Below, piece by piece: positions 4,581 through 6,695 of a stretch of 64,000 bases of DNA (position 1 is its first letter; every line of letters begins with the position of its first letter). The position numbers and the translations under genes were made by a program. The stretch comes from Escherichia phage FL33. The stretch is taken from sequence record PP400788. One strand, 5' to 3'. Below the pieces are notes generated by a model, which saw only the letters and a list, made by a program, of their open reading frames with translations, was not told where the DNA came from and searched no databases.

Positions 4581-4612
4581 CAAAAAGCCCCAACCTTTCG
4601 GCTGGGGCTAAG
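4581..4612 (-). terminator. Rho-independent terminator hairpin (copy A of a 35-nt repeat)
   Basis: Minus strand AGCCCCAGCCGAAAGGTTGGGGCT followed by TTTTTGG; immediately downstream of the 4617..5090 gene. Confidence 0.7.
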
Positions 4613-4616
4613 AATG

Positions 4617-5090
4617 TTATTTGATTTGTTTAGCAGACCAAATGCGGTCTTTGATGATTTTTTGAATGTCTTCAACATACTCTAGGTCATGAGCATGTGG
4701 GTTATCTTTGAAACTATAAGCACGAGCTAGTTTTTGGCCTTCAGTTTTGATTACTAAAAGCTCTTTAAGGATAGCTTCATATTTAGCGATAATTCCTTTA
4801 ACAATATTTTTTTCTTGTGCAGCTTTAGGATCTGCTTTAGGAGCAGGTTTACCCGAAGCCTTTGCAAAAGCAGCACCAGTAGCAACTAAACTTTTCCAGG
4901 CCATACTAACCGCATTTCCTGTAAATCCTTCTGCTTTCATGTCGCGAGCAAACTTGAATCGTGATTCGTCAGAAGCATCTTTATAGGAATATTTACCCGC
5001 TGCAATGGCTGCTTTTGCGACAGCTTGAATTTCGGTGCTAGATGCTTCATTTAACACCGCTTCATTTAAAAATTGAGTATATGATTTCAT
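4617..5090 (-). CDS. Late-expressed protein with capsid-targeting-sequence-like N-terminus (predicted head-packaged internal protein)
   Basis: 157 aa from ATG 5090 (AGGAAA SD); N-terminus MKSYTQFLNEAVLNEASSTE resembles T4 internal-protein CTS MKTYQEF with LxE motifs typical of gp21 protease sites; Ala/Lys-rich body; track ORF start 5267 is upstream of a terminator and promoter and is rejected. Confidence 0.6.
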   Translation of the reverse strand: MKSYTQFLNEAVLNEASSTEIQAVAKAAIAAGKYSYKDASDESRFKFARDMKAEGFTGNAVSMAWKSLVATGAAFAKASGKPAPKADPKAAQEKNIVKGIIAKYEAILKELLVIKTEGQKLARAYSFKDNPHAHDLEYVEDIQKIIKDRIWSAKQIK

Positions 5091-5128
5091 CTTATTTCCT
5101 GTTTTAATTTGTAGATTTAATATACTAA

Positions 5129-5136
5129 TATTTATA
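5129..5136 (-). promoter_or_regulatory. T4-type late promoter TATAAATA (minus strand) for the 4617..5090 gene
   Basis: Forward TATTTATA at 5129-5136, between the upstream terminator hairpin and the SD/ATG at 5090. Confidence 0.55.
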
Positions 5137-5168
5137 CCAAAAAGCCCCAACCTTTCGGTCGGGGCTAA
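5136..5168 (-). terminator. Rho-independent terminator hairpin (copy B of the 35-nt repeat)
   Basis: TACCAAAAAGCCCCAACCTTTCGGTCGGGGCTAAG; differs from copy A (4578-4612) by a 2-nt swap; on the minus strand the stem is followed by a T-run. Confidence 0.7.
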
Positions 5169-5214
5169 GCCTTGCGGCAACCTTGTCGGGGTTCCACCTG
5201 CTAAGGCAAGTGTT

Positions 5215-5309
5215 TGTACGAAACGCCGGGATTCGAACCCGGTTATTAAGCAGTTGACGCTACTCAATATTTTTAAAAGGCCATATCTCGACCATATCCG
5301 AACGTTCCG
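5215..5309 (-). ncRNA. tRNA-like element / candidate small stable RNA (non-canonical)
   Basis: Minus strand has a perfect T-arm CCGGG-UUCGAAU-CCCGG (fwd 5226-5242) and a 7-bp acceptor-like pairing (fwd 5219-5225 with 5303-5309, one G-U), but the 5' half shows direct repeats (GAUAUGG x2), not D/anticodon arms. Confidence 0.35.
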
Positions 5310-5481
5310 TCAAAAACGCTACTCGGCTTATGGCAAAGATATTTCCTCGAATCGATAATTCGGTGCGCCGTTTCTGCTGTGATATAAGGGGGCATTAACA
5401 AACATAAAGATTTATTAATGCCAGTCCTTAAACAGGGAACATCAGTCCGACGACTTGCCGGTAGCGACCCGGCTTCTTGTC

Positions 5482-5557
5482 TGGTCGAGGCAGTAGGGAT
5501 CGAACCTACGACCCAGGACTTAGAAGGTCCTTGCTCTTCCTTCTGAGCTATGCCTCG
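5482..5557 (-). tRNA. tRNA-Arg (anticodon UCU)
   Basis: 76-nt cloverleaf: acceptor 5486-5492/5551-5557 fully paired, T-loop fwd GATCGAA, anticodon stem 5515-5519/5527-5531, loop CUUCUAA, CCA encoded (fwd TGG 5482-5484). Confidence 0.85.
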
Positions 5558-5561
5558 TATT

Positions 5562-5636
5562 TGGCGGACGTGATAGGATTCGAACCTATAACCAATCGCT
5601 TAACAGGCGATCGCTCTGCCATTGAGCTACACATCC
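5562..5636 (-). tRNA. tRNA-Asn (anticodon GUU)
   Basis: 75-nt cloverleaf: acceptor 5566-5572/5630-5636 (one G-U), T-arm ATAGG-ATTCGAA-CCTAT, anticodon stem 5595-5599/5607-5611 perfect, loop CUGUUAA, CCA encoded. Confidence 0.75.
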
Positions 5637-5640
5637 AAAT

Positions 5641-5727
5641 TGGTGGGGAGTGGTGGAGTCGAACCACCCGAGTCGCAATGACAATGGATTTACAGTCCAC
5701 ACCGCTACCTCTACGGGATAACTCCCC
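5641..5727 (-). tRNA. tRNA-Tyr (anticodon GUA), long-variable-arm type
   Basis: 87 nt: acceptor 5645-5651/5721-5727 perfect, T-arm GGTGG-AGTCGAA-CCACC, anticodon stem 5684-5688/5696-5700 (one G-U), loop CUGUAAA, CCA encoded. Confidence 0.7.
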
Positions 5728-5736
5728 AAATTAATT

Positions 5737-5811
5737 TGGTGGCCCTGGGTGGAATTGAACCACCATCTGGCGATTATGAGTCGCTTGCTTGAACCTTCCA
5801 GCTACAGGGCC
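5737..5811 (-). tRNA. tRNA with anticodon CAU (Ile-lysidine type or Met)
   Basis: Acceptor 5741-5747/5805-5811 perfect, T-arm GGTGG-AATTGAA-CCACC, anticodon loop CUCAUAA; position corresponds to T4 tRNA-Ile. Confidence 0.75.
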
Positions 5812-5812
5812 T

Positions 5813-5888
5813 TGGTGCTGATTGACGGAATTGAACCGCCGACCTTCTCATTACAAGTGAGTTGCTCTACCTACTGAGCTAAATCAGC
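5813..5888 (-). tRNA. tRNA-Thr (anticodon UGU)
   Basis: Acceptor 5817-5823/5882-5888 perfect, T-loop fwd AATTGAA, D stem GCTC/GAGC, anticodon loop CUUGUAA, CCA encoded. Confidence 0.8.
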
Positions 5889-5894
5889 AAAATC

Positions 5895-5984
5895 TGGCGG
5901 AGGCGATAGGATTTGAACCTATGAGTCGCCGGAGCGACTGCCGGTTTTCAAGACCGGTGCATTAAACCACTCTGCCACGCCTCC
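5895..5984 (-). tRNA. tRNA-Ser (anticodon UGA), long-variable-arm type
   Basis: 90 nt: acceptor 5899-5905/5978-5984 perfect, T-arm ATAGG-ATTTGAA-CCTAT, variable-arm hairpin GTCGC/GCGAC, anticodon stem CCGGT/ACCGG, loop CUUGAAA. Confidence 0.85.
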
Positions 5985-5986
5985 AG

Positions 5987-6060
5987 TCTCCGTGGCAGGA
6001 TTTGAACCTGCGACATTCTGCTCCCAAAGCAGACGCTCTACCAAACTGAGCTACACGGAG
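5987..6060 (-). tRNA. tRNA-Pro (anticodon UGG); CCA not encoded
   Basis: Acceptor 5988-5994/6054-6060 perfect, T-arm GCAGG-ATTTGAA-CCTGC, anticodon stem TCTGC/GCAGA, loop UUUGGGA; abuts tRNA-Ser with a 2-nt spacer (dimeric precursor arrangement as in T4). Confidence 0.85.
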
Positions 6061-6072
6061 TAAATTAAATTT

Positions 6073-6144
<72 letters not shown>

Positions 6145-6149
6145 AAATT

Positions 6150-6236
6150 TGGTGCGAGAAGTGGGACTCGAACCCACAAGGAAATCATTCCGCAGCATTT
6201 TAAGTGCTGTGCCTTTACCAATTTGACCATTCTCGC
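6150..6236 (-). tRNA. tRNA-Leu (anticodon UAA), long-variable-arm type
   Basis: 87 nt: acceptor 6154-6160/6230-6236 perfect, T-arm GTGGG-ACTCGAA-CCCAC, anticodon stem CAGCA/TGCTG, loop CUUAAAA, CCA encoded. Confidence 0.85.
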
Positions 6237-6237
6237 G

Positions 6238-6310
6238 CTGGGAATAAAGGACTCGAACCTTTGCATCCTGGAATCAAAATCCAGTGCCTTACCAACTTGG
6301 CTAATTCCCA
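6238..6310 (-). tRNA. tRNA-Gln (anticodon UUG); CCA not encoded
   Basis: Acceptor 6239-6245/6304-6310 perfect, T-arm AAAGG-ACTCGAA-CCTTT, anticodon stem CTGGA/TCCAG, loop UUUUGAU; separated from tRNA-Leu by 1 nt. Confidence 0.85.
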
Positions 6311-6407: not shown

Positions 6408-6695
6408 TTACCATTTATGATAATACGTATTTACGATACATTCAAGACCCAAAGGATTCTTGAAAATATCATATTCAAGAGGACCTTTTTCTGTTTCAAT
6501 AAAGAAATCAAAATTTACTGTATTAAATTTACGGTCTTCCTTCACTAATTTAACTTGAGAAGATGAACGGTCAATGTAAACCTTTTCAACTTCAAAACAG
6601 GTTAAAATGCCATAATCATCAATCAAGGCTTTAGCTGCTTCTTGATCATATTTATATCCATTTTCAATGGATGATACTTTAGCATAAAGAATCAT
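6408..6695 (-). CDS. Hypothetical protein (95 aa)
   Basis: Minus-strand ORF upstream of the tRNA array; stop/start junction with the next gene (6695/6698). Confidence 0.55.
   Translation of the reverse strand: MILYAKVSSIENGYKYDQEAAKALIDDYGILTCFEVEKVYIDRSSSQVKLVKEDRKFNTVNFDFFIETEKGPLEYDIFKNPLGLECIVNTYYHKW

Follow-up and report, generated by a model that had tools for sequence, protein, structure and literature searches.

What is encoded in the approximately 310 nt that follow the last tRNA gene of the tRNA operon in Escherichia phage FL33? The window analyzed here, a 64,000-nt stretch of sequence record PP400788, carries ten contiguous tRNA genes on its minus strand (6310-5482; Gln, Leu, Gly, Pro, Ser, Thr, Met, Tyr, Asn, and Arg, as called by ARAGORN and Rfam). 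A preliminary description had treated the region after tRNA-Arg as one element, either a degenerate tRNA or a small stable RNA processed by the tRNA machinery. Our sequence comparisons identify this minus-strand region as homologues of rnaD (species 2 RNA) and rnaC (species 1 RNA), which form the tail of the ten-tRNA operon. Both RNAs have been known from phage T4 since the 1970s, and the region is therefore a rediscovery and not new as a discovery. We place the probability that the identity, biogenesis, and secondary structure of the two RNAs, taken jointly, are as described below at about 0.85; function lies outside this figure.

Two known RNAs at the end of a phage tRNA operon

The ten tRNA genes and the flanking ORFs place the source of the window among the T4-like phages, in the genus Tequatrovirus. 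By BLASTN, positions 5100-5560 are 100% identical to Escherichia phage FL34, and hundreds of Tequatrovirus genomes match at 90-99% identity. The operon ends with the following features.

5482-5557, minus strand: tRNA-Arg(UCU), called by ARAGORN and by Rfam RF00005 (65.8 bits); the last tRNA gene, which sets the 5′ side of rnaD.
5361-5480, minus strand: rnaD homologue, 120 nt, beginning about 1-2 nt after the CCA of tRNA-Arg, as in T4 and RB5.
5356-5360, minus strand: spacer AAUUA between rnaD and rnaC, 5 nt, from RB5 and T4 annotation mapped by alignment.
5217-5355, minus strand: rnaC homologue, 139 nt, a tRNA-like four-way junction.
5167-5216, minus strand: conserved 3′ trailer with small predicted hairpins (CACUUGC/GCAGGUG and GCC-GCAA-GGC), identical in RB5.
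5138-5166, minus strand: intrinsic terminator of the tRNA operon, from a terminator scan, with its hairpin at 5166-5143 (AGCCCCGACC-GAAA-GGUUGGGGCU) followed by UUUUU.

The assignment is carried by two annotated relatives. In T4 (NC_000866), the misc_RNA features rnaD (labelled "small, stable RNA"; species 2, 119 nt) and rnaC (species 1, 139 nt) come after tRNA-Arg on its strand, and the minus strand of the window aligns base for base to this stretch. RB5 has the same ten tRNAs, and the ncRNAs rnaD (121 nt) and rnaC (139 nt) are annotated directly after its tRNA-Arg. Over its full length, rnaC is identical to the T4 RNA at 136 of 139 positions (97.8%) and to the annotated RB5 RNA at 138 of 139 (99.3%); the corresponding rnaD identities are 85.1% for T4 and 98.3% for the annotated RB5 ncRNA. 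rnaC thus stands at the 3′ end of the tRNA operon, downstream of rnaD and upstream of the intrinsic terminator, and the same terminator is annotated as such in NBG2. The order tRNA-Arg, rnaD, rnaC, terminator is shared with T4, as are the strand, the lengths, an identical rnaD core, and the phage genus. T4 differs in lacking the extra ORF cassette that follows the terminator in the window and in its tRNA set, that of the window being of the T2/RB3 type.

The proposal of a small stable RNA made by the tRNA machinery was therefore essentially right, given the homology to the T4 species 1 and 2 RNAs, which in T4 share a primary transcript with the tRNAs (PMC2330249), except that there are two such RNAs; the supposed single element resolves into rnaD, rnaC, and the trailer. 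The 3′ end expected at 5215-5218 agrees with the annotated rnaC end at 5217, and the length of 139 nt falls inside the predicted range of 90-140 nt.

General RNA searches do not recover either RNA. An Rfam covariance search, which the preliminary description had recommended, detected no tRNA in the region: RF00005 gave no match in 5170-5481 even at E ≤ 10, and Rfam at gathering thresholds and at E ≤ 10 returned tRNA-Arg and subthreshold noise only. ARAGORN likewise called neither a tRNA nor a tmRNA in 5170-5481. Rfam 15 holds no family for rnaC or rnaD. By blast, the element is carried by 801 phage records, and in most of these approximately 800 genomes the region is unannotated or is given "hypothetical protein" CDSs. 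Since most carrier genomes mislabel or skip the region and Rfam 15 offers no families, its description has practical value for annotation. A scan of bacterial genomes gave seven matches, none of them homologous, and no host counterpart was seen among them.

Such CDS annotations, present over the region in many records, raise the alternative that it codes for small proteins, and ORFs of 34-42 aa do occur on both strands. The earlier statement that the region has no plausible ORF is roughly right, even if ORFs of 25-42 aa exist. The sense ORF begins within a hypervariable hairpin of rnaD (see below), is lost in four close relatives, and is truncated in T4, and the substitutions between genera are compensatory for base pairing and not codon-wise. 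We rejected the small ORFs on this loss or truncation of the sense ORF, which several near-identical relatives display, and consider a coding function hardly credible.

The tRNA set at 5482-6310 includes Met, Tyr, and Asn and is without tRNA-Ile and the homing-endonuclease gene segB, which splits the T4 cluster (PMC2330249). A late-promoter motif, TATAAATA, is present at 6649-6656 on the minus strand, approximately 340 nt upstream of tRNA-Gln and within a trna.2-like ORF. Just downstream of the operon lies a 157-aa ORF (4617-5090, minus strand). Its product begins with MKSYTQFLNEA, which we take to resemble the capsid-targeting sequence of T4 internal proteins, and its sole family match is PHROG 2280, a family of unknown function. 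The same late-promoter motif precedes this ORF at 5129-5136, and two near-identical terminators (5143-5166 and 4586-4609) flank it. NBG2 has the ORF, and the corresponding site of T4 and RB5 is without it; its setting suggests a cassette that entered through recombination of the terminator copies.

Outside Tequatrovirus, rnaC lies directly between two tRNA genes, typically in the order Trp-rnaC-Gly, and in Karamvirus, Gelderlandvirus, and Winklervirus it is flanked directly by tRNA genes on both sides. In phage IME08 (Dhakavirus; locus L005, 1200-1400), rnaD runs straight into the conserved trailer and terminator, and rnaC is precisely missing. The two RNAs are therefore separable modules, and the 50-nt trailer is conserved independently of rnaC. 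Blast coverage of rnaD suggests that rnaC is likewise absent from TH55, AnYang, and a few other records, and it is thus dispensable in some lineages.

Comparative fold of rnaC

The homologue set used for rnaC comprises 32 distinct sequences from GenBank phages, IMG/VR, and metagenomes and spans at least seven genera (Tequatrovirus, Karamvirus, Winklervirus, Gelderlandvirus, Moonvirus, Kanagawavirus, and Marfavirus). A degenerate pattern scan of metagenomes gave 67 matches, mostly due to chance and about 10 of them true, and chance also accounted for most of the matches listed in a third IMG/VR pattern scan. Positions are numbered from U1 = 5355, such that the window coordinate equals 5356 minus the position. 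Comparison yields for rnaC a tRNA-like four-way junction composed of an acceptor-like stem, a 70-nt arm, a 10-bp arm, and a T-arm, as follows.

5348-5354, minus strand: 5′ strand of P1, CGAUUCG (positions 2-8), paired with 5219-5225 in 100% of the 32 sequences.
5219-5225, minus strand: 3′ strand of P1, CGUUUCG (positions 131-137), stacked directly on the T-arm.
5278-5347, minus strand: long arm (positions 9-78) in the D-arm position, formed by P2 (9-11 with 76-78), P3 (14-20 with 67-73), P4 (22-27 with 60-65), P5 (30-33 with 55-58), and P6 (37-42 with 49-54); compensatory change in 19 of 26 pairs.
5308-5313, minus strand: P6 loop UUGACG (positions 43-48), with a proposed kissing contact to the P7 loop.
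5244-5269, minus strand: P7 arm (87-96 with 103-112) in the anticodon-arm position, a 10-bp stem with a 6-nt loop; compensatory change in 9 of 10 pairs.
5254-5259, minus strand: P7 loop CGUCAA (positions 97-102), the proposed kissing partner.
5226-5242, minus strand: T-arm CCGGG-UUCGAAU-CCCGG (114-118 with 126-130), whose middle stem pair covaries (G-C in 18, U-A in 13, U-G in 1).
Dot-bracket notation, with square brackets for the proposed kissing contact:
.(((..(((((..(((((((.((((((..((((...(((((([[[[[[)))))))))).)))))).)))))))..)))........((((((((((]]]]]])))))))))).(((((.......)))))))..)))..

Two alignments support this fold. With MAFFT, 95.9% of the cells are paired and 27 of the 52 pairs show compensatory change, a result reached by none of 500 shuffles, and slid controls gave 37-47%. 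An alignment of the 32 sequences fitted to the model gave 95.6% paired cells and compensatory change in 31 of 52 pairs (0/500 shuffles; slid controls 38-48%); the latter is biased toward the structure by construction and agrees with the independent MAFFT alignment. The minimum free energy (MFE) of rnaC is −50.6 kcal/mol (z = −4.1), better than that of all 200 shuffles, and the rnaC covariance model scores the window RNA at 177 bits. Compensatory changes extend over the whole 139 nt, which is therefore under structural selection, and for this reason the description "degenerate tRNA" does not fit.

Within P1, pair 4:135 covaries (A-U in 14 and G-C in 18 of the 32 sequences), and the middle of the stem is an invariant tandem of U.U pairs (U5.U134 and U6.U133). 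The T-arm noticed in the preliminary description is present exactly as given, and this strand of the whole 64-kb window holds only one further copy of GTTCGAATC, in tRNA-Asn. A direct repeat, GAUAUGG, had also been correctly observed (5298-5292 and 5287-5281); the fold explains it, since one copy serves as the 3′ strand of P4 and the other as that of P3.

The T-loop is canonical in most rnaC homologues and reads UGCAUCC or UGCAUGC in place of UUCGAAU in those of the Winklervirus type (five loci from Winklervirus and related phages). Because the T-loop is non-canonical in some genera, models that require a true tRNA elbow are weakened. The sequences with variant T-loops also differ at position 74, within the internal loop between P2 and P3, where G is replaced by C; the two features could be a linked change or could simply reflect shared ancestry.

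A different acceptor-like helix had been proposed in the preliminary description, which paired 5219-5225 (CGUUUCG) with 5303-5309 (CGGAACG) to give a degenerate tRNA of approximately 90 nt without D and anticodon arms. The two 7-mers are indeed complementary in the window, with one G-U pair. Moreover, the Rfam tRNA-Sec model aligns this fold (16.6 bits, E = 1.7, compared with a gathering score of 47), and one GenBank record (G9062) has a 96-nt "tRNA-OTHER" called at the place corresponding to this fold. Yet no compensatory change supports the pairing, 13 of 29 homologues have A.C in place of G49:U135, and sequences of the Gelderlandvirus and Marfavirus types disrupt further pairs. The conserved partner of 5219-5225 is instead 5348-5354: P1 and P6 both compete with the proposed helix, and both covary. 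Folding of the RNA, as had been suggested, likewise gave an MFE structure in which the 5′ end pairs with the 3′ end and the 5303-5309/5219-5225 helix is unused. Furthermore, T4 and RB5 annotate a 139-nt RNA that starts at the equivalent of 5355, and the 90-nt fold is matched by neither ARAGORN nor RF00005. We therefore judge it very improbable and retain the four-way junction.

The P6 and P7 loops are perfectly complementary in all 32 sequences despite their variable stems, and in the Klebsiella Marfavirus group the loops read UUGGCG and CGCCAA, such that A46-U99 is replaced by G-C in a double change. Loop-loop complementarity of at least 6 nt arises in 13 of 1000 dinucleotide shuffles of rnaC. 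Because both stems covary, both hairpins form, and a contact between their loops would be of the kissing type and would close the body of the RNA. From the conservation and this one covariation event, a P6/P7 kissing contact is likely. An architecture with such kissing loops is perhaps undescribed, at least outside the structure papers of the 1970s.

Two DNA-level candidates for short motifs in the region were rejected. TTGACG, found on both DNA strands, was considered as a −35 box, but it lacks a properly spaced −10 element, and the double change in Marfavirus is consistent with RNA pairing. TGCTTAA was considered as a MotA box and was rejected by inspection; the T4 sequence is TACTTAA.

Invariant core and variable hairpin of rnaD

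rnaD is not tRNA-like. Comparison of 18 distinct homologues reveals an invariant core around a hypervariable hairpin, and its MFE of −39.5 kcal/mol (z = −3.5) is better than that of all 200 shuffles. Three elements make up the structure.

5457-5473, minus strand: 5′ hairpin with a 5-bp GCCGG/CCGGC stem and an invariant 7-nt loop, GUCGCUA.
5363-5454, minus strand: long-range helix between GUCGUCG (5454-5448) and CGGCG(C)AC (5370-5363), with one bulged C, enclosing the rest of the RNA; from RNAalifold.
5382-5432, minus strand: hypervariable central hairpin, UAAGG...GGCAUUAA...UUAAUGCC...CCUUA.

The 5′ hairpin, which had been placed at 5457-5475, is confirmed with the stem and loop listed. Its closing pair covaries (A-U in 9, G-C in 7, and G-U in 2 sequences), and a different helix occupies its place in Marfavirus, where a shorter rnaD-like element is found elsewhere in the tRNA cluster. 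The long-range helix is invariant in the 18 sequences and is thus backed by conservation and energy, not by covariation. The invariant core also includes the stretches ACUGAUGUUCCCUG and AUCACAGCAGAAAC, together with GUUCCCUG and AAGAA, which are probably single-stranded.

A second hairpin had been described at 5393-5430. Its GGCAUUAA/UUAAUGCC helix exists, but its true span is 5391-5422, or 5385-5430 with the outer UAAGG/CCUUA helix. Between invariant flanks, at least four unrelated versions of this central hairpin are present in close relatives, and each of them forms a hairpin, which suggests cassette-like replacement or diversifying selection. The versions are seen at five loci of otherwise near-identical phages. 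The variant carried by T4 is unlike that of the window, hence the overall rnaD identity of only 85%.

At its 3′ end, rnaD reads ...CACCG in the window and ...CACCA in T4 and RB5; other homologues end in ...CACCG, ...CACAG, or ...CACCU. Because ...CACCA is limited to some phages, an encoded CCA is not conserved in rnaD.

Proposed biogenesis, possible functions, and related RNAs

In T4, RNase P cleaves a dimeric precursor of species 2 and species 1, and phages with the tRNA region deleted are viable. In the window, rnaD and rnaC are transcribed from the minus strand as the last part of the operon, up to the terminator at 5166-5143. By analogy with T4 and from the structures given above, we propose that the polycistronic precursor would be cut by host tRNA-processing enzymes. 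P1 stacked on the T-arm would present the minihelix that RNase P recognizes, and RNase P would make the 5′ end of rnaC; the same cut would thereby free the 3′ end of rnaD. The 3′ trailers would subsequently be removed by exonucleases, and compact folding would account for the stability of both RNAs. In rnaC, the kissing P6 and P7 loops would lock the body such that only the acceptor end and the T-loop are exposed.

Published work on T4 is informative on several of these steps. The T4 transcript through the tRNA cluster ends after the species I gene and is the precursor of eight tRNAs and the species I and II RNAs (PMC2330249). RNAC and RNAD have been seen as discrete RNAs on Northern blots, in work whose only phage probe described is the one for RNAC, and both are classed as late, a call reported as Northern-validated, the tRNAs being classed as early (PMC9697503). 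Late transcription of the operon could start from the motif TATAAATA at 6649-6656, in keeping with the late accumulation described for RNAC and RNAD of T4.

The biological roles of rnaC and rnaD are described in the literature as unknown (PMC3014915, PMC9697503, PMC12685909), and our literature search found no recent functional studies of either RNA. When a T4-like phage was evolved on a semi-permissive host, the only SNP common to three replicate lines fell in rnaD (PMC12685909), an experiment that points to a host-dependent role for this RNA.

One possible reading, though a doubtful one, is that rnaC and rnaD are cis elements of the tRNA operon that act as processing spacers or pacers or protect its 3′ end, the stable species being by-products with no role in trans. 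Their location always inside or at the end of tRNA clusters speaks for this, as do the lineages without rnaC and a function that is so far unreported (PMC3014915). Against it, invariant loops, tandem U.U pairs, and compensatory evolution over 139 nt in at least seven genera amount to more constraint than a spacer needs, and the late class of T4 RNAC and RNAD differs from the early class of the tRNAs (PMC9697503).

Our preferred proposal for the function, a speculation that is more probably wrong than right by a wide measure, is that rnaC mimics a tRNA without decoding, so as to occupy or titrate a host or phage factor that binds tRNA, and that rnaD is under host-specific selection, which the fast-changing rnaD hairpin would reflect. 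A more specific version, in which rnaC is a locked tRNA mimic whose decoding end is sealed by the kiss and which works in trans, either as a competitor or as a decoy, on a host factor directed at tRNAs, with rnaD as a co-evolving host-specificity module, is quite unlikely as it stands. If true, candidate targets of the decoy would be a tRNA-cleaving defense nuclease or a processing or modification enzyme.

We hold it to be just as unlikely that rnaC, rnaD, or both are small regulatory RNAs that base-pair with phage or host mRNAs. The term "small regulatory RNAs" has been used for them (PMC9697503), and GUUCCCUG and AAGAA in rnaD and an A/U-rich linker in rnaC would be available for pairing. 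There is, however, no known target, and the most conserved loops of rnaC are complementary to each other and not free. The comparative fold offers concrete mutants, namely in the choice of P1 partner, the tandem U.U pairs, the two invariant loops that complement each other, and the variable hairpin of rnaD.

The bacterial Y RNA YrlA, the 3′ tRNA-like structures of plant viruses, and mascRNA are non-decoding modules with the shape of a tRNA, which tRNA enzymes process or bind. rnaC is like them in principle but differs in architecture and here lacks an Rsr/Ro gene context; no Rfam family of these kinds matched at E ≤ 10. In the tRNA-like domain of tmRNA, as in rnaC, an acceptor stem and T-arm bear a large non-tRNA body. 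Unlike tmRNA, rnaC has neither a tag reading frame nor the tmRNA pseudoknots, ARAGORN made no tmRNA call, and the sole Rfam tmRNA match in the region is the 17-nt T-arm, at 10 bits.

rnaC was also compared with canonical tRNA (RF00005). The rnaC model matches genuine tRNAs weakly, at 13-28 bits. Directly after P1, the window and most homologues encode U-ACA, and the T4 and RB5 annotations end rnaC at U138 A139, two nucleotides past the last P1 pair at G137. Only in Marfavirus (two Klebsiella phage sequences) is rnaC followed by U-CCA, in the same lineage as the compensatory change in the kissing loops. rnaC differs from tRNA in having a 70-nt multi-helix arm instead of a D-arm, tandem U.U pairs in its acceptor-like stem, and a 10-bp stem with a 6-nt loop where the anticodon arm has a 5-bp stem and a 7-nt loop. 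Features shared with tRNA are the four-way junction, the location in a tRNA operon, and an acceptor-like stem of 7 bp, in which the 5′ and 3′ ends pair and which is stacked on a 5-bp T-stem with a UUCGAAU loop. rnaC is neither a tRNA nor a decaying tRNA gene and is, in form, probably a tRNA mimic.
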